64,000 nt of DNA from an uncultured Planctomycetaceae bacterium (GTDB lineage: Bacteria; Planctomycetota; Planctomycetia; Planctomycetales; Planctomycetaceae), in NCBI GenBank assembly GCA_963976765.1, contig CAXBME010000005.1, forward strand, positions 62,001 to 126,000. The letters run 5' to 3'. The translations under genes were made by a program, and so were the position numbers. The notes beneath the pieces were generated by a model, which made no database searches, was not told the origin of the DNA, and saw only the letters and a program-made list of their open reading frames with translations. Below are positions 3,001-29,369 of the stretch, one piece after another (position 1 is the stretch's first letter; every line of letters begins with the position of its first letter).

Positions 3001-3527
3001 GCGAGGGTGCGTTTCTGACGCTGCTGGTCAATCCCCGCGACTATCAACAGGCAGCAGAGGAAGTGTCCCGACGCTTCCCGGTGCAACTGGTGGACTTCGA
3101 AGGTCTGCTGATCGAAGCGCTCCGCGAGGTCGCCGAGAAGGCGAAAGTGAAGTGGGACCTGGTCCTGGCGACGGACGCCGCTCCCGGGAAAGGCGACTGG
3201 GACCGACTGCTGCTGCTGCTCGGTCGAGCGATGCCGTTGGTCGAGCAGCAACTGGCCGCGTCTGACCGCACGATGCTGATGATCTACCCGGGCCTGCTGG
3301 CTCGCTACGAGCAGATGTCACTACTGCAGCGACTGCGGGACCAGGTGGGCCGCAAAGGCGGCATCCCCGGTCTGTGGCTGCTGATCCCCGACGAACAGCA
3401 CGCCACGATCGACGGCAAAGCCATCCCCATGATCAGCCCGGCTCAGTGCTCCCGCATCCCGGTCGGCTGGATCAGGAATGAGCATCGAGGAAAACAACCG
3501 CTGACTGCTGAAAGTCCCACATCATGA
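1..3527 (+). CDS. pglW: BREX-2/Pgl serine/threonine kinase PglW (5'-truncated by window)
   Basis: Frame open from window start; two kinase-like domains (HRALSPQSV, HRDLKPDN, DFS), RNAP alpha-CTD-like segment (KLRGVGNKT); precedes pglX-pglY-pglZ. Confidence 0.9.
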   Translation, partial: IYNVRTGASQDERDTIERAAHREAELLESLQHPGILRREGYTQHELGPALIFEHDPLMMRLDHFLAERHERLGLDERLDLVRQLAEVVRFAHQRRVVHRALSPQSVLVSEGAGSRLQLKVFNWQVGYRDPSSTTDESRGVTATSHVDRLVEDVSTAYIAPEAMSGEDNTGEHLDVFSLGAIAWHVFTGQPPAANGLELSNRLHETNGLQISSVLNGAGENLQELIQWSTHADVGLRLDTADEFLTLLEKVEDEATAPDAEHSVEDPNQARKDDILPGGLRVIKRLGRGSCSIVLLVERDGEEFVLKAASDPEHNARLKDEVDVLSRLHHNHIVVQCGTVEIGDHFGFLMRPVFAEREKRTIETLRDRLRSEGRLHVDLLQRFGNDLLDVVRYLEEEAGIPHRDLKPDNIAIGQIKRGQKLHLVLFDFSLSRSSTESLRAGTNGYIDPMLPLRKNKRWDLHAERYAAAATLYELAAGPGILPKWGDGASLPSLTKDEATIDGDRFDPSLREPLTAFFVRAFQRDPQQRFDNAEQMRDAWRDCFIGIEDSSPLSDHDDDTDLRALLDSATFDTQIPELGLGTRTTNALDKANVLTVEDLLTVPVRRLMKLRGVGNKTRREILDVVRILRERLGRPQQSDVPEVEEEVVETEVTDVGSLSVDLLAQRVTKTGAKEGDSSRATLLALLGLDDRLTEAWPSQTEVAPVVGVTRGRIGQLVGKFQTRWTKDAAVTALRSDVANIVTTAGGVMSAAELAEALLVARGSTQDEPQRSRLAAALTRVCVEVERTLTDPRFLVRRSQGRVLIALDSELADAALRLGDEADQIADEDPLVAPARALARLRDVPVPPQLASVSDTRLLRLASAVSLKAAVSSRQELYPRGLAADRALKLSQGALYGVPRLTVDQVHSRVRGRYPEAESLPGHPELERLLLDAGFQFEWDALAGDGGCYVSRQKDIVTFTSASETPPRNSTARTSDRAVAIGDDTPEIADARQFEEKLDRGIREGAFLTLLVNPRDYQQAAEEVSRRFPVQLVDFEGLLIEALREVAEKAKVKWDLVLATDAAPGKGDWDRLLLLLGRAMPLVEQQLAASDRTMLMIYPGLLARYEQMSLLQRLRDQVGRKGGIPGLWLLIPDEQHATIDGKAIPMISPAQCSRIPVGWIRNEHRGKQPLTAESPTS

Positions 3528-6500
3528 TCGACCGTATTGCTCTTCTTTCTGACCTGCAGTCGCTGTTGAAGCGGCTGGAAGCTGATTTGCTGGACCGCAG
3601 TGACTCGGATGATGTGCCCGAAGTCCGCGAGTGGCTGCTGCGCGAGTATCAGCAGGCGAAGGAATCCGAACGCACCGCGCAGACTCAGAAGCAGTGGGTC
3701 GATGACTTCATCACGCAGGTCGCGGCCGCGTGGGTGCTCAGTGCGGTGTTTGCCCGGTTTCTGGAAGACAACGGGCTGGTTGATCCGCCGCGTATCAGCG
3801 GGCCTCAGGATGTCGACAATCCCGCCAGCAGTCGGCTCAGCCGGGCTCGGGATGAGCGTGAACTTTATTTCGGCCAGCATCCGAAACACACGGACCGCGA
3901 CTACCTCCTCGACGTGTTTGCCGGGCTGGCGAAGCTGCCGGCGACAGCGGACGTGTTCGGCGAGCACAACCCGTTGAACTCGCTGCCCAACTGGCTGGGA
4001 CCGGACGCGGCGGGCGAGCTGCTGACGTTCTTCCAGAAGATCGATGCCGGCACCGGGCAGCTTGTGCATGACTTCACCGATCCTGATTGGAACACCCGCT
4101 TCCTGGGCGATCTGTATCAGGACCTGTCCGAAGCCGCCCGCAAGAAGTACGCGCTGCTGCAGACGCCTGAGTTCGTCGAGGAGTTCATCCTCGACCGCAC
4201 CCTCGAACCGGCTCTGGACGAGTTCGGCCTGACCGAGTTCAAGATGATCGACCCCGCCTGTGGCAGTGGCCACTTTCTGCTGGGATCATTCCCCCGAATC
4301 CTCGACCACTGGAATCAGGAAGAGCCGGGGACGAACGTACGGGTGCTGGTGCAGCGAACGCTGGATTCAATTCACGGAGTGGATATCAACCCGTTTGCGA
4401 TTGCGATCGCCCGGTTTCGTCTGCTGCTGGCGGCGCTGGCGGCCTGCGGTGTGAAGCGTCTGGCGGATGCTCCCGCGTTTGCAATGAATCTCGCGTGTGG
4501 CGATTCGCTGTATCACGGCGTCGAGCGGCAACAGACGCTGGGCGACTGGACGGACGAGTCGCACTATTTCCGCACCGAAGACGCCGAGAATCTAAGACGC
4601 ATTTTGCAGGAAGGAACCTTTCATGCCGTCGTCGCAAATCCACCCTATATCGTTGTTAGTGATCCGGCGGCGAACGCAGCTTATCGCCGACTCTACAAGG
4701 AAGTCTGTCACAAGCAATACTCGCTCGCCGCACCATTCTTGCAACGCATTAATAAGTTAGGAATTGACTCACATACGAGTGCAGCGTTCACGGGACAGAT
4801 AACCGCGAACAGCTTTATGAACAACGAGTTCGGTACGAAGCTCGTTGAGACTTATCTCCCTACGATTGACTTAACGCATATCGTCGATACTCGCTACCTT
4901 CAGCCAGAGGGGCACGAAACCCCCACTGTGATTCTGTTTGGAAGGGCGAGGCGACCGGTCAATGCTGATGTGCGGGTGGTGCGAGGAATCAAGGGAGAAT
5001 CGCCCGTTCCGCCAGACTTGTCAGCTGGGCAAGTCTGGACCTCAATTCTTCGGCAGATCGACCTGCCCGGTTCTGAGGGCGAGTTTGTCTCGGTGTGTGA
5101 CACAAGCCGGGAAGAACTCTCAACTCACCCTTGGTCGATTGGTGGAGGCGGAGCGTCAGAGCTTTATGACTACCTTGTCAGCACAGCGAACACAAAGTTA
5201 CGTGTTCATCTCAGTGAAATCGGGCGCACGACGCACACTGGTGAAAACCCCGCATTCTATCTATTAAACGGAGCAGACCGCACTCGTGGCTGGAGTGATT
5301 GGGTTCTTCCCGTTGTAAGTGGGGAGGATATTCGTGACTGGCTGATAGAGCCCGAAGAAGTGACGATATTTCCATATGATCACCAAACAGGTGAGCGGCG
5401 GGACAACATGCCAATTACGCTGTCACGTCACTATTGGATTCATCGTGCGACCCTACGGTCGAGACAAGATTTCGGAGAGACGATTGAAGAGCGAGGTTTG
5501 CATTGGACAGATCACTCGATGTTCTTTCCGAAACGCCATCGCCACACTACGTCAGTTGCATTCGCCTTTAAGGCAACGCACAACCATTTTGCCTTAAATG
5601 ACAGCCGATTCGTCTTCAATCAAACCGCACCGGTGATTCAGCTTCGAGAGGGCACACGAAAAGACTACTGTGAGCTGCGTGAGATTCTAAACTCATCGGT
5701 GAGTTCTCTTTGGGAGCGAGAAGTCCACCGAGAAGTAAGTGGAAAACGTGAAGAACGATGGCAGGGCCGCCTAGAACGAAATTCAACTAAGCTGAAGGAC
5801 TTTCCACTTCCTGAGGAACGCCCAAGTATTCAATCATCAGCAATTGAATTAAATGTCGCGAATCTAAGCGGATCACTTCCCTACACTGTGGTCCAAAAGT
5901 GGGTTGACTCTGGTAGGGACGAACTCGCAGTACTGCTTGAAGCTGCGAAGCATTCAGCAAATGAGGCAATCGCTTTGTTGATCCGCCTCCAAGAGGACCT
6001 CGACTGGGAATGCTACCGTCTTTACGGTTTGTGTGAGGACGACCTGACGTACCAGAGTTGTCAGTCGTCAGTCGTCAGTGGTCAGGAAGACTCTGAAAAC
6101 CGTGAACTGACAACTGATAATTCCTTCGGCATCCAGCTTGGCGAGCGGGCCTTCGAGATCGTGCTGGCGCGCAAGATGACTCGCGGCGAAGTTGCGACCA
6201 CGTGGTTCGAGCGGCACGGCAGTACGCCCATTACGGAACTGCCCGATCAATGGCCCGACGACTACCGGCAACTGGTCGAACGCCGCATCGCCGTCATCGA
6301 GTCCAATCCGCAGATCGCCCTCATCGAGCAGCCCGAATACAAACGCCGCTGGAACACCGAATCGTGGGACTCGCAGGTAGAGCGTGCTCTGAAGTTCCGG
6401 CTGCTGAATCGCCTCGAAAGCTACTTCGACTTCGACGGGCGGATGCGCGGTGAAGAGAGTAGTGAGACTGCCACGGCTCCGCTCGCTGAGATCGCTGTGG

Positions 6501-20892: not shown

Positions 20893-20964
20893 GGGTCGGT
20901 AGCTGAGATGGTTTAGCGACGGTCTGAAGAACCGTAGACGAGGATTCAAGCGCCTCTCGACCCA
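20893..20964 (+). tRNA. tRNA-Phe(GAA), imperfect T-arm
   Basis: Acceptor GGGTCGG/TCGACCC; ACGGT-CTGAAGA-ACCGT. Confidence 0.75.
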
Positions 20965-20992
20965 CTTGCGCATCTGATGCGCACTCGCACAT

Positions 20993-21066
20993 GCCCCGTT
21001 CTTCTAATGGCTCAGGATGCTGGTCTTTCAAGCCGGCGATGCCGGGTTCAATTCCCGCACGGGGTA
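20993..21066 (+). tRNA. tRNA-Glu(TTC)
   Basis: Cloverleaf; loop CTTTCAA. Confidence 0.85.
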
Positions 21067-21072
21067 CTACAT

Positions 21073-21145
21073 GGCCTGTTAGTGAAACTGGACATCACGA
21101 GACGCTTCGAACGTCTTATTCCGGGTTCGAATCCTGGGCGGGCTA
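21073..21145 (+). tRNA. tRNA-Arg(TCG)
   Basis: AGACG-CTTCGAA-CGTCT; TTCGAAT T-loop. Confidence 0.9.
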
Positions 21146-21152
21146 CTTACAA

Positions 21153-21225
21153 CGGGATGAAGGGGAGTTGGCGCCCCGCCTGGTTTGGGACCAGGAGATC
21201 GCAGGTTCGAATCCTGTCATCCCGA
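21153..21225 (+). tRNA. tRNA-Pro(TGG)
   Basis: CCTGG-TTTGGGA-CCAGG; C1-G72, A73. Confidence 0.9.
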
Positions 21226-21243
21226 CTGACGAAGACTCAACAC

Positions 21244-21316
21244 AGCCCGGTCGTTCAACGGTCGAGGACGCCGTTCTGATAAGGCGGAGACGAAGGTTCG
21301 ACTCCTTCTCGGGCTA
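21244..21316 (+). tRNA. tRNA-Ile(GAT)
   Basis: Loop CTGATAA; cloverleaf. Confidence 0.88.
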
Positions 21317-21395
21317 CTTGAAATTCACACAGACAATACCCGGAGCCTGACATGCCGACGCTGCATCGATTGAAACAGATACCCACTCCTCGCAC

Positions 21396-21467
21396 GAGGT
21401 CGTGGTGTAACGGCAGCACAGCAGACTTTTAATCTGCACGGCGAGGGTTCGAATCCCTCCGACCTCA
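21396..21467 (+). tRNA. tRNA-Lys(TTT)
   Basis: GCAGA-CTTTTAA-TCTGC. Confidence 0.9.
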
Positions 21468-21486
21468 TTGAGCAACACGAGGCACA

Positions 21487-21558
21487 CGGCCCGTAGCTCA
21501 AGGGTGAGAGCAGGCTCCTTATAAGGGCACGACGACGGTTCGACTCCGTCTGGGCCGA
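21487..21558 (+). tRNA. tRNA-Ile(TAT), rare anticodon
   Basis: Loop CTTATAA; A73; canonical D and T arms. Confidence 0.85.
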
Positions 21559-21572
21559 CTGAGAGAAGAACC

Positions 21573-21821
21573 ATGAAACGCACAATTTACAGGCAATGCG
21601 AAGTCCGTCGCGGACCGGCATTCCGGCTGACTTGGATACCGGCATCGTTCGCGGTCAACGGCAAGATGCTGAATTTGCGTGACAACGGTGAGTGGTCCGA
21701 TGGCTGGGTCGTCACCGAAGTCTATCCGGACACCGAGCGGATCATCACGCCGACTCCGCAGAGTGAAATCAGACGTCACCGAAGAGCAACGGGAGACTCG
21801 CTTCCGCGGCTCGCCAAGTAA
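21573..21821 (+). CDS. 82-aa hypothetical protein embedded in tRNA array
   Basis: Fills gap between two tRNAs, purine-rich RBS, Trp-rich sequence. Confidence 0.65.
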   Translation: MKRTIYRQCEVRRGPAFRLTWIPASFAVNGKMLNLRDNGEWSDGWVVTEVYPDTERIITPTPQSEIRRHRRATGDSLPRLAK

Positions 21822-21827
21822 CAACAC

Positions 21828-21900
21828 GGGATCGAGGTGTTAGCGGCAGCACATCCGGCTCTTAACCGGACAGGTGAGGGTTCGAGCCCCTCCGATCCTA
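21828..21900 (+). tRNA. tRNA-Lys(CTT)
   Basis: TCCGG-CTCTTAA-CCGGA. Confidence 0.9.
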
Positions 21901-21911
21901 CTCGACGACCA

Positions 21912-21983
21912 GCACTGGTCGTTCAGCGGCAAGGACACCGCACTCGTAATGCGGCAACGTGGGTTCGAGTCCCACCCGGTGCT
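21912..21983 (+). tRNA. tRNA-Thr(CGT)
   Basis: CCGCA-CTCGTAA-TGCGG. Confidence 0.9.
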
Positions 21984-22016
21984 CTGTAGTTCTTTGACAA
22001 TTGGTTCATTTCATCA

Positions 22017-22087
22017 GCGCCCATGATGTAGCGGCAGCCTACTGCCTTGCCATGGCGGAAGTGCGGGTTCGACTCCCGCTGGGCGCT
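22017..22087 (+). tRNA. tRNA-Gly(GCC)
   Basis: Loop TTGCCAT; U73. Confidence 0.85.
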
Positions 22088-22114
22088 CTCGGCATACATT
22101 GAGTCTGCACTTAT

Positions 22115-22205
22115 CAGGGCGTGGGAAAGTCTGGCCCCTTTTTGTTTTGAACAGGTCGAGTGCTTCGTGAGCACGAGATCGTCGGTTCAAATCCGGCCGT
22201 CCTGA
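22115..22205 (+). pseudogene. tRNA-Pro-bodied gene with element in D-arm and CGT anticodon
   Basis: CAGGGCG/CGTCCTG-A acceptor and T-arm intact; D-arm 3' half replaced (22135-22158); loop TTCGTGA. Confidence 0.7.
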
Positions 22206-22235
22206 CTGCGGCTTCGGCCGCGACATAAACAACAT

Positions 22236-22310
22236 TGCGGTGGTGCTCGTGCTGGTACGGGCAGGCGGCTGTTAACCGTTTTGACGCAGGTTCGATTCCT
22301 GCCACCGCAG
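22236..22310 (+). tRNA. tRNA-Asn(GTT)
   Basis: Loop CTGTTAA; U1-A72, G73. Confidence 0.85.
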
Positions 22311-22316
22311 CTTTGG

Positions 22317-22402
22317 GGAAGTCATCCGGCTGGATGAGGAGCCTGCCTCGAAAGCAGGTGAGGGCAAATTGTCCGTTGTGGGTTCGAGTCCCACGGCTTC
22401 CG
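22317..22402 (+). tRNA. tRNA-Ser(CGA)
   Basis: CCTGC-CTCGAAA-GCAGG; long variable arm; G73. Confidence 0.85.
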
Positions 22403-22418
22403 CTTCGTGAAACAACAC

Positions 22419-22490
22419 GTGCCCTTGGCCGAGCGGCAAAGGTTCCAGGCTTCCAACCTGGCGAGGCGGGTTCGACTCCCGCAGGGCACT
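22419..22490 (+). tRNA. tRNA-Gly(TCC)
   Basis: CCAGG-CTTCCAA-CCTGG; U73. Confidence 0.9.
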
Positions 22491-22498
22491 CTCTTCAT

Positions 22499-22570
22499 TG
22501 CGGGGTGTCTGTTGGTCGACCGGCGTGGCTTTGAACCACGTCGACGCGGGTTCGATTCCTGCACCCGCAA
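22499..22570 (+). tRNA. tRNA-Gln(TTG), atypical D-arm
   Basis: CGTGG-CTTTGAA-CCACG; U1-A72. Confidence 0.75.
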
Positions 22571-22599
22571 CTTCGATGACGGCTCGAACAGGAATCCAA

Positions 22600-22670
22600 T
22601 GCGGGATCGTTCAATGGCAGGACGCGGCGCTCTGAACGCCGTAATGCTGGTTCGAGTCCAGCTCCCGCAA
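22600..22670 (+). tRNA. tRNA-Gln(CTG)
   Basis: CGGCG-CTCTGAA-CGCCG. Confidence 0.9.
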
Positions 22671-22735
22671 CTGCGGCACTGCCGCTTTGTTCGAGCTACC
22701 GCTCGGATGAGCGATCCAGCGTCGAGAGCAACTAC

Positions 22736-22819
22736 GGAAGTCAACCGGCCGGATGAGGAGCCTGTCTTGAAAACAGGTGCGGGGTTAGCCCGTTGTGGGT
22801 TCAAGTCCCACGGCTTCCG
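22736..22819 (+). tRNA. tRNA-Ser(TGA)
   Basis: CCTGT-CTTGAAA-ACAGG; long variable arm; paralog of Ser(CGA). Confidence 0.85.
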
Positions 22820-22837
22820 CCTTCTAAAGAACAAGAC

Positions 22838-22910
22838 GGTCCTGTGGCCCAGCGGCGAGGGCAGCTCCCTTACAAGGAGACGATCGGTGGTTCGAGTCCA
22901 CCCAGGATCA
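22838..22910 (+). tRNA. tRNA-Val(TAC)
   Basis: Loop CTTACAA. Confidence 0.88.
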
Positions 22911-22921
22911 CTTCACGACAT

Positions 22922-22994
22922 GGCACCGTAGCCCAACGGCAGAGGCGGTCGTCTCAAACGCGACGAAGTGTGAGTTCGAATCTCACCGGTGCCA
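22922..22994 (+). tRNA. tRNA-Leu(CAA), short variable arm
   Basis: GTCGT-CTCAAAC-GCGAC; 5-nt V loop GAAGT. Confidence 0.85.
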
Positions 22995-23014
22995 CTTGAA
23001 GCAAAACACAACAT

Positions 23015-23089
23015 GCCCTCGCAGAGCAGCCAGGAGTGCTCGCCATCCTGTCACGATGGAGATCGTCGGTTCGAATCCGATCGGGGGTG
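23015..23089 (+). tRNA. tRNA-Asp(GTC)
   Basis: CCATC-CTGTCAC-GATGG; G73. Confidence 0.88.
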
Positions 23090-23122
23090 CTTGTCACAAA
23101 CGGAAAAAGAAAAAGAACTTTC

Positions 23123-23195
23123 GACGCGGTAGCCCAATGGGAGAGGCAACCGGTTTAAGCCCGGTCCAGTGTGGGTTCGACTCCCACCCGCGTCA
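23123..23195 (+). tRNA. tRNA-Leu(TAA), short variable arm
   Basis: ACCGG-TTTAAGC-CCGGT; V loop CCAGT. Confidence 0.85.
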
Positions 23196-23214
23196 TTCAC
23201 ACAGCAATCACGAC

Positions 23215-23285
23215 GGCCCATTCGTCTAGCGGCAGGATGCCAGGTTCTCAGCCTGGAGACGGGAGTTCGATTCTCCCATGGGTCA
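23215..23285 (+). tRNA. tRNA-Glu(CTC)
   Basis: CCAGG-TTCTCAG-CCTGG. Confidence 0.9.
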
Positions 23286-23301
23286 CTCAGTAGCAAGACA
23301 T

Positions 23302-23375
23302 GGCACCGTAGCCCAATTAGTAGAGGCGTCTGGCTTAGGACCAGAAGGTTGAGAGTTCGAATCTCTCCGGTGCTA
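23302..23375 (+). tRNA. tRNA-Leu(TAG), short variable arm
   Basis: TCTGG-CTTAGGA-CCAGA; V loop AGGTT. Confidence 0.85.
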
Positions 23376-23395
23376 TTCACAAAAGAATCCAACAC

Positions 23396-23477
23396 GCGTC
23401 GGCTGGGCACTGGTGAGCCCACGTGGCTGTAACCCACACGCCGAAAGGCTTTGGCGGTTCAACTCCGTCCCGACGCA
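23396..23477 (+). tRNA. tRNA-Tyr(GTA)
   Basis: Loop CTGTAAC; long V arm GCC-GAAA-GGC. Confidence 0.88.
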
Positions 23478-23496
23478 CTCGACATCTCATGAATAC

Positions 23497-23569
23497 GGTG
23501 GCGTAGTGTCAATGGCGAGCACGACGGATCGTCGATCCGTTAGAGCGGGTTCGAGGCCCGTCGTCACCG
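23497..23569 (+). tRNA. Atypical tRNA, anticodon GTC (Asp-like, C33)
   Basis: ACGGA-TCGTCGA-TCCGT; GGTGGCG/CGTCACC, G73. Confidence 0.65.
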
Positions 23570-23589
23570 TCGCGTTTAGACAGCAACAT

Positions 23590-23672
23590 GACCAGGTGGT
23601 GGAACGGTAGACACGCGACGCTCAGAACGTCGTGCCCTTTGAGGCATGGGAGTTCGAATCTCCCTCTGGTCA
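23590..23672 (+). tRNA. tRNA-Leu(CAG), long variable arm
   Basis: CGACG-CTCAGAA-CGTCG. Confidence 0.9.
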
Positions 23673-23677
23673 CTGAC

Positions 23678-23768
23678 GAGTTGAAAGTTGCGAGTGCAGA
23701 GTGGAGAGATTCGGCGAACCTGATCGTCGACCGCTGACTCTCAACTCGGAACCTTCAACACTCAACTC
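23678..23768. repeat. Heptamer-repeat inverted hairpin spacer
   Basis: GAGTTGA-type units opposite TCAACTC-type units. Confidence 0.65.
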
Positions 23769-23770
23769 AT

Positions 23771-23840
23771 TGCAGGTGCGGCAGGTGCCCAGTTGGCTCT
23801 CATAAGGCCGGCCTCCCCGGCTCGATACCGGGACCTGCAA
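23771..23840 (+). tRNA. Atypical tRNA-Met/Ile2(CAT), mini D-arm
   Basis: TGCAGGT/ACCTGCA; loop CTCATAA; T-loop CTCGATA. Confidence 0.65.
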
Positions 23841-23863
23841 CTTTTCAAACAGAAACAACACAT

Positions 23864-23931
23864 CGCGGGTGGGCGAGGCTCATCGGGGTTTCATAAGCCT
23901 CGACAACCGGGTGCGACTCCCGGACCCGCTA
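23864..23931 (+). tRNA. Atypical initiator-like tRNA-Met(CAT), mini D-arm
   Basis: CGCGGGT/ACCCGCT with C1:T72 mismatch; loop TTCATAA; T-loop TGCGACT. Confidence 0.65.
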
Positions 23932-23940
23932 CTTCCAAGA

Positions 23941-24019
23941 GAGTCGAGAGCTGAGTGCCCAGAGTCGAGAGACAGCCTCGTTGCTGGTCCCTGGACTCTC
24001 GTCTCTCAACTCTGGACTC
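23941..24019. repeat. Heptamer-repeat inverted hairpin spacer
   Basis: GAGTCGA/GAGCTGA units opposite CTGGACT/CTCAACT units. Confidence 0.65.
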
Positions 24020-24024
24020 AACCC

Positions 24025-24096
24025 GACTCCGTGGTCCAACGGCAACGACACCTGCGTGACATGCAGGAGACGATGGTTCAACTCCGTCCGGGGTCA
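24025..24096 (+). tRNA. tRNA-Val(GAC)
   Basis: CCTGC-GTGACAT-GCAGG (G32). Confidence 0.85.
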
Positions 24097-24115
24097 CTTG
24101 AGCTGAAGTAAGAAT

Positions 24116-24186
24116 GGTCTGCAGGTGTTTCGGCGGCACACCGCTGTGGTAAGGCGGAAGGCCGGGTTCAATTCCCGGGCGGACCT
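24116..24186 (+). tRNA. tRNA-Thr(GGT)
   Basis: CCGCT-GTGGTAA-GGCGG (G32). Confidence 0.85.
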
Positions 24187-24205
24187 CTTGAAGAGAAGAC
24201 GACAC

Positions 24206-24276
24206 GGGCTGCTCGTCCAATGGGAAGACGCCTGGCTTGCAACCAGGTAATCGGGGTTCGACTCCCCGGCGGTCCA
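24206..24276 (+). tRNA. tRNA-Ala(TGC)
   Basis: G3:U70; CCTGG-CTTGCAA-CCAGG. Confidence 0.9.
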
Positions 24277-24288
24277 CTTGATGACAAC

Positions 24289-24359
24289 GGGGTCATGGTC
24301 CAACGGGACGACTCCAGCATGGCATGCTGGCAATCCGGGTTCGATTCCCGGTGACTCCA
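24289..24359 (+). tRNA. tRNA-Ala(GGC)
   Basis: G3:U70; CCAGC-ATGGCAT-GCTGG. Confidence 0.9.
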
Positions 24360-24367
24360 CTCGATAC

Positions 24368-24453
24368 GGAAGGTAGCCGGATACGGTTGGCCGGACCGCA
24401 CTGCTAATGCGTGTGCCTTTACGGGCGTGTGAGTTCGAATCTCATGCCTTCCG
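24368..24453 (+). tRNA. tRNA-Ser(GCT)
   Basis: Loop CTGCTAA; long V arm; G73. Confidence 0.85.
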
Positions 24454-24462
24454 CTTTGATAT

Positions 24463-24551
24463 GGCCTGATGGTGAAACGGAAATCATCCCTCGCTTCTAA
24501 CGAGGCCCCGTCTCGTTTGTAACAGGGCGGGTTCGAATCCTGGTCGGGCTA
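24463..24551 (+). tRNA. tRNA-Arg(TCT) with 21-nt element in variable loop
   Basis: CCTCG-CTTCTAA-CGAGG; V region 24506-24526 versus 4 nt in paralog Arg(TCG). Confidence 0.75.
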
Positions 24552-24582
24552 CTGAGAAGACAAGCCGCCTGTTGCGGCAAAA

Positions 24583-24690
24583 GGAAGGGCAACCCGATGG
24601 GTGACGGGAACCGGTTGGAAGCCGGTCGAGTGCGTTGACGCGTGCCTTGCGAGTTCGACTCGGGCACCGCCCGCAGGGTGGTCCCTTCCG
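24583..24690 (+). pseudogene. tRNA-Ser(GGA) with hairpin element in T-stem
   Basis: ACCGG-TTGGAAG-CCGGT; acceptor intact; 24662-24680 interrupts 3' T-stem. Confidence 0.75.
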
Positions 24691-24692
24691 CT

Positions 24693-24768
24693 GTGGCCGG
24701 GTCCGGTGCTGGTTTCCGGAGACAGACTGTGAATCTGTTCGTCGTCGGTTCAATTCCGATCGGCCACC
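24693..24768 (+). tRNA. tRNA-His(GTG), no encoded G-1
   Basis: ACAGA-CTGTGAA-TCTGT; C73; base -1 is T. Confidence 0.85.
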
Positions 24769-24865
24769 TCCAAACCGAGCGTTTGGATCGGATTGCCGTA
24801 GGGGAGCGTCACCAGATTGGGACGCCGCTACGGCGAGTGAGTTTTATGAGCAAAGGACTGGATCG

Positions 24866-25462
24866 ATGGTTGCTGCTGTACTTGATCGACCAACGCTGGT
24901 GCTGAATCGCAACTGGCAGCCTGTCGGCGTCGCCACGGTTGCGAAGGCGCTGACGAAGGTCTGGAACGAGTCGGCGCGGATCGTCGATCCTGCTGACTAC
25001 CAGCAATACACATGGCAGGACTGGGCACAACTGCGACCGGAAGACGGCGATCTGTTCATTCAGACTCGTCGATTCCAGTTGCGGGTTCCGGAGGTTGTCA
25101 CACTGACGAAGTACGACCGCCTGCCGACGAACTCGGTGATGTTCAGCCGGCGAAATGTCTTCAAGCGAGACAAGTTCACGTGCCAGTATTGCGGTGCTCG
25201 ACCAGGCAGCGAGGAATTGACGATCGACCACGTCACGCCGAGGGCTCAGGGTGGAACATCCACCTGGGTCAACTGTGTGCTGGCGTGCATCGGCTGCAAC
25301 TCGCGCAAGGCTGACCGGACTCCGGAGCAGGCTCGGATGCCGCTGCGATCAAAGCCGGTTCGGCCGACGTGGCGACCGCTGTACGCGGCTCGCGGAGTCC
25401 GCATCGAAAGCTGGTCACGTTTCGTTAGCGAGAGCTACTGGAACATAGAACTGAGTGAGTGA
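24866..25462 (+). CDS. HNH endonuclease
   Basis: TLVLN N-terminus, RDKFTCQYCG, LTIDHV.P, CIGCN..K; start re-assigned to MVAAV. Confidence 0.9.
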   Translation: MVAAVLDRPTLVLNRNWQPVGVATVAKALTKVWNESARIVDPADYQQYTWQDWAQLRPEDGDLFIQTRRFQLRVPEVVTLTKYDRLPTNSVMFSRRNVFKRDKFTCQYCGARPGSEELTIDHVTPRAQGGTSTWVNCVLACIGCNSRKADRTPEQARMPLRSKPVRPTWRPLYAARGVRIESWSRFVSESYWNIELSE

Positions 25463-25507
25463 CACGAGTCGCTGCCGGCCTCGGCGTTGAGGTCGGCAGC
25501 TTTACAC

Positions 25508-25577
25508 AGCGGTGTGCTCCTGGGAGAGCAGGCAGATTCCAAACCTGTCCCACGGGGTTCGACTCCTCGCACCGTTG
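25508..25577 (+). tRNA. tRNA-Trp(CCA)
   Basis: AGCGGTG/CACCGTT, G73; loop TTCCAAA. Confidence 0.8.
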
Positions 25578-25600
25578 CTGCGGCATTGCCGCATTAAGTT

Positions 25601-25691
25601 GCCGACGTGGCTCGATACAGAAAGGCGCCGGTCTTGCCCTGTCACAATTTGCAAACGGCGGATCATGCGGGTGCGAATCCTGCCGTCGGCC
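25601..25691 (+). pseudogene. tRNA-Thr(TGT)-like gene with element in anticodon loop
   Basis: GCCGACG/CGTCGGC acceptor, T-arm present; CTTG followed by 25 nt where 8 expected. Confidence 0.7.
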
Positions 25692-25696
25692 CTCAA

Positions 25697-25785
25697 GCCC
25701 AGCGGATGTGATGAACAGAATGGCGGTCTTCAATGCCCGCTGGACGAGGTTCGACGGGCGGCGCCCGAAGAATAGTCCGGCGGAA
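25697..25785 (+). pseudogene. Decayed tRNA (Arg-like body) with hairpin element after T-loop
   Basis: GGCGG..CCCGC anticodon-arm remnant, CGAGGTTCGA, then element similar to the Ser(GGA) insert. Confidence 0.5.
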
Positions 25786-25802
25786 TTTTTAATGCACAAC
25801 GC

Positions 25803-25875
25803 GTCCTCGGAGTGTGGCGGATTCGCACGCGACCCTGCGAAGGTCGAGGACCAGGTTCGATTCCTAGCGGGGACA
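25803..25875 (+). tRNA. tRNA-Arg(GCG), rare anticodon
   Basis: CGACC-CTGCGAA-GGTCG. Confidence 0.88.
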
Positions 25876-25894
25876 CTTTTCATTTCGACAACAC

Positions 25895-25966
25895 GACACC
25901 GATGCTCGATGGTCGGGCGGCTGCCTGCAAAGCAGCTCATAGTGAGTTCGATTCTCACCGGTGTCT
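25895..25966 (+). tRNA. tRNA-Cys(GCA)
   Basis: GCTGC-CTGCAAA-GCAGC; U73. Confidence 0.9.
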
Positions 25967-26064
25967 CTTTAATGCTTGCCTTGATGCTGTCATTGCCGGC
26001 GGTGCGTTGGGCTCAAGAGTCAGCCTGACGTATTCCGTGAACGGGTTTTGAACATGACGGTGTC

Positions 26065-26140
26065 GATGTGGTCGCCCAATTGGTAGGGCACCAGGTTTTG
26101 CACCTGGCTGTTACGGGTTCGAGTCCCGTCCACGGCTCCA
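26065..26140 (+). ncRNA. tRNA-like RNA with encoded CCA, mismatched acceptor, loop TTTTGCA
   Basis: Well-formed D arm (GCCC/GGGC), CCAGG/CCTGG stem, ACGGG-TTCGAGT-CCCGT; ends TCCA. Confidence 0.7.
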
Positions 26141-27766: not shown

Positions 27767-28924
27767 CTATCGTCGCGAACCTTTGTAACTCAGAACCGGA
27801 CGCAGCTCGCGTTCGATGCGCGTCAATTCGGACTGTGCTCGCATGACTGCGTGGATGTCACGGTACGCGGACGGTGCTTCGTCTCGCAGGCCTGCCGCAA
27901 TGTTGTGGTCGAACCACACCGATCGCATTTGCTGATGCAGCGACCGGGCTGTCACCGACTTCTTTGCGTCCGTGCGACTGAAACGTCGTCCTGCGCCGTG
28001 TGAGCTGCTGCACAAGGACTGGGCATTGCCTCGGCCAGTGACGTGGAAACTCGCCGTGCCCATCGAACCGGGGATGATTCCCGGTTTGCCATCGTGAGCA
28101 CTCTGGGCGCCCTTTCTGTGGACGAGGAACTGCTGACCTCCATGTTGTTCCCGACGAACATGATTGTGGTTGCTCTGTATGAGCGTCTGTGGATCGGCTT
28201 CTACGCCGAACCGGGTATAGAGAATGTCGCTGGCGGCACTCAGCATGGCCAGTCGGTTCAACTCTGCGTACTGCGATGCCCACTCCACGTCGTTGATGTA
28301 CTCAGTCCCGGCTGGTGAGTTCGCGTCAACAAACCCAAGGCCGTTCGATTGTGAGTCACACTTGCTGATGTGAAGTGATGAGACCAACTGACCGATCCCA
28401 CGAGAGCCGCTGTGGACCATCAGCCACAGGCGTCCAGACTGATCGGCCTGGAACTCCAGGAAGTGGTTGCCTCGACCAAGTGACCCAAACTGCACGCGCG
28501 CGTCACGCTGCTTTTCCGCTTCGAGACGTGGACAACTCAGAGGACGGGCAAGCAGGTCATCGGGTAAAGATTCCGGCATCGTCTCCCGGTGATGGCGATT
28601 CGCTGGCACGTACCGATAAAGGTCGGCCAGCAGAGTTGCTGCGGCGGTTTCGTTTCCAAGGACGTCGGCATTGGCATCAAAACCGATGGCGGCCATGCCA
28701 CAGCCGATGTCACTCCCAACGGCTGCGGGGTAAAGCAGCCGGGACGTTGCAAGAACGACGCCGACGCAGACATCTCCCGCCAAGTGGACATCAGGCATGA
28801 CGGCGATGCGTTGAACGTCATCCGCCTCAGACAGACGCCGTAGTGATGTTTGCACGTCGTGACTGAGCGGTTCGGTAAGCCAGACTGGGATATCGTCTCC
28901 GGCAGTGATGTGCTTACTACTCAT
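27767..28924 (-). CDS. rtcB: RNA ligase RtcB
   Basis: MPDVH, VGSDIGCGM, GRGNHFLE, HSGSRG, HRKGA, PGSMG, HGAGR, DEAP; AGGAG RBS. Confidence 0.93.
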   Translation of the reverse strand: MSSKHITAGDDIPVWLTEPLSHDVQTSLRRLSEADDVQRIAVMPDVHLAGDVCVGVVLATSRLLYPAAVGSDIGCGMAAIGFDANADVLGNETAAATLLADLYRYVPANRHHRETMPESLPDDLLARPLSCPRLEAEKQRDARVQFGSLGRGNHFLEFQADQSGRLWLMVHSGSRGIGQLVSSLHISKCDSQSNGLGFVDANSPAGTEYINDVEWASQYAELNRLAMLSAASDILYTRFGVEADPQTLIQSNHNHVRREQHGGQQFLVHRKGAQSAHDGKPGIIPGSMGTASFHVTGRGNAQSLCSSSHGAGRRFSRTDAKKSVTARSLHQQMRSVWFDHNIAAGLRDEAPSAYRDIHAVMRAQSELTRIERELRPVLSYKGSRR

Positions 28925-29369
28925 CTTCGCTCCTATCAATCACGTCATTCGTCGCCTGGGTCGACACAATGCGGAACCTCAGCGCGGGCGCACGTTTGCG
29001 AGTGATTGAGGCAGCGACCTCGGAACGAAGCCGGCCGGCAACTCGATCCAGTCGTTCCAGCACGACGGATGGATCGGCAGGGGCTTCGAGACTGCTCTCG
29101 ATACTGACCGTCACAAGCATTTGCGAGGCGTTGGGCGCTGGGATGACAGACTCGACGATGAGCGACTGCAGCAGCTCGTCGGAAAACTCGCCAGACAGGA
29201 CCAGGCTCAGCGTCTGCTCGACCTGCTGGCAGAGCTGCTGTGTCTTGCGGTCCCGTTTGTTTCGATCCGAATGACTTTTGAAGAAGCGGCGTGGATCGAC
29301 GCCGTCGTCTTCCTGAATCTCTCCACAGCACGCGAGCATCTGCTCGCGCTGACGATTGTTGAGTGGCAT
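28917..29369 (-). CDS. RbfA-like ribosome-binding factor paralog
   Basis: RbfA-type C-terminus (GRLRSEVAASITRKRAPALRF) with extra CCGE..DDG.DPR N-terminus; overlaps rtcB start. Confidence 0.75.
   Translation of the reverse strand: MPLNNRQREQMLACCGEIQEDDGVDPRRFFKSHSDRNKRDRKTQQLCQQVEQTLSLVLSGEFSDELLQSLIVESVIPAPNASQMLVTVSIESSLEAPADPSVVLERLDRVAGRLRSEVAASITRKRAPALRFRIVSTQATNDVIDRSEDE

Follow-up and report, generated by a model that had tools for sequence, protein, structure and literature searches.

Related 22-nt inserts in three tRNA genes

The 64,000-nt stretch of an uncultured Planctomycetaceae bacterium analyzed here (the window; positions 62001-126000 of contig C5 in the 8.57-Mb, 95-contig genome G000) holds a long array of tRNA genes, three of which are interrupted by copies of a 22-nt insert that we term F1. 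The phenomenon is real and widespread: probably a tiny gene-less mobile repeat, marked by an exact replacement of five bases at tRNA loops. We think it rather probable that the inserts are gene-less mobile DNA elements rather than spliced introns, and F1 is likely to be among the smallest mobile DNA elements.

The tRNA-Pro(CGG) gene (22115-22206, forward strand, as are the other interrupted genes and their inserts) is interrupted in the D-loop, where alignment to an uninterrupted paralog on contig C27 of the same genome revealed 22 nt (22135-22156) in place of GAATC. In the tRNA-Arg(TCT) gene (24463-24552), the insert (24506-24527) replaces TGTTC at the variable loop and the first T-stem base, as judged from an uninterrupted paralog on contig C74. 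The third copy (25637-25658) replaces TAAAC in the tRNA-Thr(TGT) gene (25601-25692), at its anticodon loop, and the anticodon is lost; here the intact orthologs of loci L013, L014, L015, L024 and L030 served as reference. ARAGORN calls the Pro gene as Lys and the Thr gene as Gln. Each time, five bases between a G and a CG are exchanged for 22, with a net gain of 17 nt; the target-site duplication of a miniature inverted-repeat transposable element or insertion sequence (IS) footprint is absent (5 nt lost, 0 duplicated). The first-pass annotation had estimated the gain for Pro; it is exact there as well as for Arg and Thr, and the alignment to uninterrupted arrays that it had proposed yielded this fixed 5-for-22 geometry. 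A fourth variant, of 21 nt, occupies the Thr gene of the second array on C74. The window Pro gene appears to be a decaying copy, since its anticodon is now CGT and the D-stem carries one more change.

Strings that the first-pass annotation had reported at 22133-22158 (Pro), 24504-24529 (Arg) and 25636-25660 (Thr) are present in the sequence, and its 20/26 match between Pro and Arg, with Thr as a third variant, proved to reflect one family. The identity of the 22-nt cores was 16/22 for Pro-Arg (p=5e-6), 13/22 for Arg-Thr (p=6e-4) and 11/22 for Pro-Thr (p=7e-3; 200,000 shuffles), so that all three pairs passed the comparison with shuffled controls. On both strands of the 8.57-Mb genome, the sole match of at least 20/26 to the Pro string is the Arg string; other matches at 20/26 (one for the Arg string, two for the Thr string) are all unrelated. 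The Pro insert is spanned by a contig of X1 with 0 differences and by a diverged contig of X5, from another study, and that of Thr by X1 contigs as well as contigs from three further studies (X3, X4 and X13); X1, which matches exactly, is possibly the source sample. The Pro and Thr inserts are not assembly errors, because contigs from other studies bridge both. No bridging contig was found for the Arg insert among the matches listed, although positions 24501 and 24507 are variant in an X3 contig.

F1 in related tRNA arrays

To collect related arrays, a pattern for the 5' half of Thr-TGT was scanned, which gave at least 120 loci, 80 of those listed with full flanks; as an intact 5' half was needed, this set is biased towards undecayed genes. 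Together with earlier loci, the survey comprised 130 loci with at least three tRNAs (2,073 tRNA calls), mostly related arrays, with a few overlapping loci. Almost all homologous loci among those listed are titled Planctomycetota. A split-hit search yielded 126 candidate inserts, 100 of them short (net 11-35 nt), in 44 of the 130 loci listed. Merging of identical rows left 51 rows of a second family, F2, and 45 others, nine of which were dropped (seven F2-like leftovers and two doubtful). F1 thus accounts for 36 rows in 23 loci and 10 tRNA types among the loci listed. These counts are lower bounds, because the Pro inserts of L073 and L040 and the Thr inserts of L062 and L156 were seen by eye and missed by the script; a mis-cut Pro row of L123 was kept in the profile and in the count of 36, and excluded from the pairing test. 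A metagenome scan returned three rows, of which L248 is a further F1 insert in Thr and the other two are chance matches.

F1 is 21-22 nt long in this genome and mostly 17-23 nt elsewhere. One end reads CCC and the other an AACA-type motif followed by GG, with a variable middle; the ends hold 7.7 bits of information, against 2.6±0.2 in shuffled inserts. The idea that the middle is a retained or inverted target 5-mer was rejected (permutation p=0.7-0.9 on 27 inserts). The same sites are re-used across genera: the anticodon loops of Thr-TGT and Lys, the D-loop of Pro, and the variable loop of Arg, Ala and Pro. Among the 120 Thr-TGT genes listed, 17 are interrupted, 11 by F1 (all right after the same TTG) and six by F2. 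The target resembles G|NNWWC|CG. Inserts of either orientation were assigned at the Thr-TGT, Arg-TCT and Ala-GGC sites; F1 is near-palindromic, so these orientation calls are less sure than those of F2. Named isolates with such inserts are Stieleria magnilauensis (L052), Rubripirellula obstinata (L054), Rhodopirellula sp. SM50 (L116) and Schlesneria sp. T3-172 (L099).

F2, a sister family that spreads and nests

F2 reads CGGGCACC ... GGTCG and forms a bulged hairpin of 22-28 nt. One copy (24662-24683, forward strand) interrupts the 3' side of the T-arm of a tRNA-Ser(GGA) gene (24583-24691, forward strand) that ARAGORN and Rfam miss and that has an intact paralog on C74; 22 nt replace 5 nt, again a net gain of 17. 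A degenerate copy (25756-25778, forward strand) interrupts the T-arm of tRNA-Arg(TCG), a gene that has itself decayed (about 25698-25790); its boundaries, from by-eye comparison with orthologs, are approximate. In the surveyed tRNA genes of the loci listed, F2 occurs in 31 combinations of tRNA type and orientation at 29 loci, 35 times antisense and 16 times sense. It is also found in loops like those of repetitive extragenic palindromic (REP) sequences, in long reading frames and in its own copies (L053, L067, L108 and L119 are among the sites); one host stretch is presumably a group II intron domain V.

In two genomes F2 is abundant: G320 has 459 pattern matches (control, 12) and G321 has 56 (control, 7). 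All 10 matches to nested F2 have lost the identical 5 nt of the outer copy. Pairing of the variable stem is seen in 150 of 156 cells, whereas re-dealt arms give 95±6. Because of the high copy number, the nesting with 5-nt loss and the strong covariation of the stem, we conclude that F2 is a mobile unit in its own right. F2 sites in G320 were sampled in 483 kb picked where copies were already known (n=44). Their flanks pair with each other at -3.1 kcal/mol, against -2.2±0.2 for re-dealt flanks, and the right flank is mostly GCG. Stop-free frames of at least 250 codons contain 35 of the 44 sites, though the GC-richness of the DNA makes this weak evidence. With its net gain of 18 nt, the common 23-nt form keeps the frame. 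Of the 120 rows that a viral scan with a loose F2 pattern returned, not one shows a convincing F2 hairpin.

F1 and F2 are alike in size, target class and 5-nt loss. The first-pass annotation had described the inserts as footprints of a tiny tRNA-targeting element. The element family stands, and the footprint part needs correcting: the inserts resemble self-contained mobile units more than remnants of a larger element, because no larger parent was found at the sites and F2 spreads and nests with the same 5-nt replacement. Its term "tRNA-targeting" applies to F1 only in so far as F1 was seen in tRNA genes alone, in a search made mainly in such genes; F2 inserts into REP loops, long reading frames and its own copies as well.

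A further observation concerns F2. In several genomes, at one site in Leu-TAG (L067, L076, L115, L122 and L124) and Lys-TTT genes (L078, L116 and L117), F2 variants whose loops differ and are compensated replace the anticodon, and most of these genes have a well conserved body.

A possible mode of movement

In the favored reading, an enzyme supplied from elsewhere would paste the 22-base unit into an exposed loop of folded single-stranded DNA. Two cuts 5 nt apart would open the target, and strand exchange would join the element in; F1 would move as F2 does. For the mover, to which no candidate gene could be linked, our tentative best guess is a single-strand transferase of the HUH type that acts in trans. 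The inserts are likely to persist because the arrays, of the stress type, can be dispensed with: Thr-TGT, Arg-TCT and Ser-GGA each have an intact gene at another place in the genome, and the second array holds an intact Pro-CGG gene. The net gain of 17 nt would shift a reading frame, which may be why F1 is seen only in non-coding RNA genes, whereas the +18 form of F2 has spread genome-wide. Empty and filled alleles within one genome favor mobile elements.

Several results weigh against such elements. The target motif is also present at many tRNA sites never seen hit, for example the anticodon loops of Asn and Cys. F1 folds weakly, and its inner arms show no covariation (59 against 53±6, p=0.18), although the outer three pairs do covary (p=0.006). 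Nested F1 is absent among the 36 F1 rows. In its own genome the four F1 copies all lie in tRNA arrays, no close copy was found outside the two arrays, and the F1 profile gave no surplus over reversed controls. A strict palindromic F1 pattern matched none of 301 genomes, and in five host genomes the F1 pattern disclosed no high-copy family, the matches being unrelated-looking (23 against 4 in the control in G323). The strict F2 pattern likewise had 15 matches in the 301 genomes against about 21 in the control, so that the evidence there consists of location and hairpin form. An enzyme link is absent: in a scan for F2 only, a copy lay at one of 30 loci around HUH Y1 (PF01797) genes. When the own genome was scanned with loose motifs, all matches were attributable to chance, and a permissive ARAGORN intron run gave noise.

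The state of the interrupted genes also speaks against mobile elements. Their bodies are less decayed than expected of dead genes, with a median difference of 3.3% from the nearest intact gene, and between window and second array the Thr body has 4/70 differences against 23/99 at silent HNH sites. This low decay fits recent insertion, mosaic exchange or retained function. Arrays do exchange tracts, and a hot spot hit several times independently would produce a similar pattern. Damaging changes do occur, as in the mutated anticodon of the window Pro gene and the U33-to-C change of the C74 Thr gene. A bolder reading, which we regard as doubtful, combines an undescribed bacterial "loop-swap" transposition, in which 20-30-base hairpins replace exactly five bases of a folded target, with arrays that deliberately keep some of the overwritten genes. 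Taken as a whole it would include, at the same low likelihood, an anticodon-less tRNA-Thr, intact in other respects, that serves as a nuclease-resistant decoy or processing signal, with the insert swapped between strains and the body under selection. A literature search, with most subscription papers and all supplements outside its coverage, found no description of such inserts in Planctomycetota tRNA genes.

Alternative origins of the inserts

The strongest competitor of a self-contained mobile element, which we nevertheless consider improbable, is that F1 represents the fused ends of a larger transposon or integrative element after internal deletion or abortive excision, and does not move by itself. 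Conserved ends around a variable, weakly folding middle are what such a scar would show, and dispersed F1 copies were found neither in the own genome nor in the 301 genomes or the five host genomes. Moreover, IS elements do enter such genes, as with an IS110-type element in Arg-TCT (L086) and an IS4-type element in Ala-GGC (L108), the families being assigned from translations. Yet none of seven candidate long inserts (>500 nt) combines a position at an F1 site with F1 ends, target duplication is lacking, the lost 5-mer is not kept in either orientation, and F2, which multiplies as a 23-nt unit, shows the identical 5-nt loss. Self-comparison of the own genome disclosed no multi-copy element bearing F1 ends, which is weak evidence in a 95-contig assembly.

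Capture at the RNA level is, in our view, a little less probable still. A stress RNase would cut a tRNA loop, a few bases would be trimmed, RtcB would ligate a short RNA in, and a reverse transcriptase would write the chimera back. The sites are mostly single-stranded cloverleaf loops, RtcB adjoins both arrays of this genome, reverse transcriptases were present in all four genomes searched, and in Anabaena array-tRNA cleavage and co-regulation with rtcB are described (PMC8421152). In addition, two 25-nt F2 variants, out of 40 tested, match an own-genome stretch at 20-21/25. On the other hand, F1 and F2 both occur in either orientation in tRNA genes (F2 35 antisense, 16 sense), a stable-RNA source of F1 was not found in the own genome, and RtcB was within 6 kb of the Thr gene in none of 45 full-length 12-kb loci, 24 of which carry inserts. 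The last result also gives no support to the link to RtcB that had led the first-pass annotation to recommend a processing test.

Two observations touch on possible RNA sources. The own-genome stretch that best matches some F2 variants lies at C2:95153 of G000 (and L173:1501); we take it to be RNase P RNA, and the likeness may be coincidence or origin. An origin of F1 from 6S RNA was considered and set aside: the single 6S candidate detected in the own genome scored below threshold, and the best F1 matches do not cluster there.

Even less probable is that the genes give working tRNAs, with the inserts acting as short introns spliced by proteins or being tolerated as additional arms. Archaeal bulge-helix-bulge tRNA introns also occur at non-canonical positions; they resemble the present inserts in being short, in lying in D-loop, anticodon loop and variable loop, and in the proximity of RtcB. 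Among contigs of four runs, differences fell at 9 of 22 insert positions and 5 of 70 body positions (Fisher p=5e-4), the body being conserved and the insert variable, and 48 of 171 Arg excisions were still called Arg-TCT. Excision of 16-18 nt, by contrast, restored Thr-TGT in 0/177 and Pro in 0/177 cases, as the first-pass annotation had foreseen in holding that these are not clean introns, and the best Arg product still differs from the intact paralog at seven positions, one of which leaves the T-stem mismatched. The PF01974 splicing endonuclease was found in none of three genomes, with four archaeal controls detected. The changes in the window Pro anticodon and at U33 of the C74 Thr gene also speak against functional products, and an intron would leave the origin of the inserts unexplained. 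Unlike the archaeal introns, the inserts have cost exon bases, leave Thr and Pro unrestorable, lack a detected endonuclease and occur in both orientations. Splicing thus appears unlikely, because excision fails for Thr-TGT, no archaeal-type endonuclease was found in the three genomes, and RtcB is missing within 6 kb at the 45 other loci.

Chance similarity or an assembly artefact is hardly credible: taken by itself, Pro resembles Thr only modestly (11/22, p=0.007), and the Arg insert has no bridging contig among the matches listed, but the shuffle p-values, the unique genome match and the end information are significant, contigs of independent studies and the same sites in other genera, named isolates included, repeat the observation, and an artefact is refuted for Pro and Thr.

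The array and its surroundings

The host array (20893-26140, forward strand) comprises 38 ARAGORN calls and at least four genes missed by that program. It contains an HNH endonuclease gene (24869-25462, forward strand; Pfam PF01844, from the translation), and an SPFH gene and the RtcB ligase gene (27767-28939, reverse strand; PF01139) stand behind it in the Pfam search, RtcB being without evidence of action on the inserts. With its long series of tRNA genes on one strand and its HNH and rtcB neighbors, the locus matches the L-arrays. Planctomycetes are among the phyla with tRNA L-arrays, and in Anabaena stress induces these arrays, which are regulated together with HNH and rtcB (PMC8421152). 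The second, paralogous array of the genome (C27:1-1475 and C74:1-3900) has its own HNH and RtcB genes. It is identical to the window in tracts (e.g., 24024-24278), with diverged spacers between them, a pattern that suggests gene conversion between the arrays.

Directly upstream of the array, a BREX/Pgl-type defence cluster (171-20367) encodes a kinase, a methylase, PglZ, BrxC/D and a helicase according to Pfam. An 82-amino acid open reading frame within the array (21573-21821) is missing from the paralogous array; it had no match in the Pfam search, and its atlas matches, to small viral and planctomycete proteins, were weak. In L087 (about 3500-5900), a TROVE/Ro60-like open reading frame, labelled by eye, follows the last tRNA of that array.

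Inserts of other kinds were also seen. Behind tRNA-Gln(CTG), a spacer hairpin carries an insert of ~50-57 nt (22686-22733, reverse strand) that is missing from the paralogous array; the X5 contig skips 22672-22730. By eye it resembles a third family, F3 (AGCAAG ... GCGGTAG), which replaces about 2-14 nt for a net gain of about 48-64 nt in array tRNAs, in both orientations (L029, L050, L055, L058, L080, L123 and L167); F3 is not high-copy in five genomes. The Arg-TCT genes of L086 and L014 are interrupted in the same anticodon loop by a 1.8-kb IS110-type element and a 78-nt REP doublet, respectively, which have a short end motif in common. The tRNA-Met genes of L063, L074 and L112 hold inserts of 550-880 nt that by eye resemble group I introns.

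Nostocales plasmid arrays have inserts of 20-24 nt in four tRNA genes, at two of six loci picked from 53 matching records. They lie in the T-loop (Met, Glu and Gly in L372, Ala in L377) and replace about one base; a further T-loop insert, in Tyr of L374, comes with a short duplication. We regard the phenomenon as one and the same, though its geometry differs, with a loss of about 5 nt for F1 and F2 and of about 1 nt for the Nostocales array inserts.

Significance and comparison with known short repeats

In the cited text, how DNA elements below 30 bases move is still open (PMC3116915, PMC3119063). The present locus offers exact empty and filled alleles in one genome, a fixed signature (5 lost, 0 duplicated), recurrent hot spots and named isolates; the mechanism is therefore testable. 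For annotation, the interruptions cause genes to be overlooked or given the wrong identity (Lys for Pro, Gln for Thr), so that planctomycete array tRNA counts are off.

In architecture, the host locus resembles tRNA L-arrays such as the Anabaena trn operon, with about 40 tRNA genes on one strand, an HNH gene and rtcB close by; the available text mentions three pseudogenes and frequent indels, and not recurrent short inserts within tRNA genes (PMC8421152). REP/REPIN-RAYT (TnpA-REP) systems likewise consist of short hairpin repeats, abundant in Planctomycetes and moved in trans (PMC3116915, PMC3733652), and the doublet in Arg-TCT of L014 is of the GTAG type. F1 and F2, in contrast, have no terminal GTAG or CGTC tag in their end profiles, and F2 enters REP loops instead of being a REP. 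A link of F2 to RAYT was rejected on the single copy at the 30 PF01797 (Y1) loci. The SMR-A repeats of Haloquadratum, whose mobilisation is called enigmatic, share with our families the lack of a gene, inverted ends, the absence of target duplication and insertion into palindromes of other elements (PMC3119063). They differ in being archaeal and about 110 bp long, in having PATEs as target and in their IS605-type ends, and the text available does not mention target loss (PMC3119063).

The small dispersed repeats (SDRs) come nearest in kind. The SDR1-8 of Nostocaceae (Elhai et al. 2008, Genome Res 18:1484) are treated in several later papers (PMC3116915, PMC5861425, PMC2884548), one of which lists their origins as unresolved (PMC3116915); SDR5 prefers sites in HIP1 (PMC5861425). 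F1 and F2 resemble them in a size of about 20-27 nt, in being gene-less, in having no known mover and in site preference. SDRs reportedly are about 21-27 nt long, have no coding capacity, nest in themselves and keep their stems by compensatory changes. F2 shares the self-nesting and the compensatory stems. F1, unlike SDRs, is not dispersed in its own genome, is weakly folded and was not seen nested. Occurrence at many unrelated genome sites holds for F2 in G320 and G321 and not for F1, and for this reason F1 is not filed as an SDR. The best reading of these analogies is that F1 and F2 would work like the Nostocaceae SDRs, collecting in dispensable arrays. By this comparison of described features, F1 is probably a new form of the known tiny mobile repeats.

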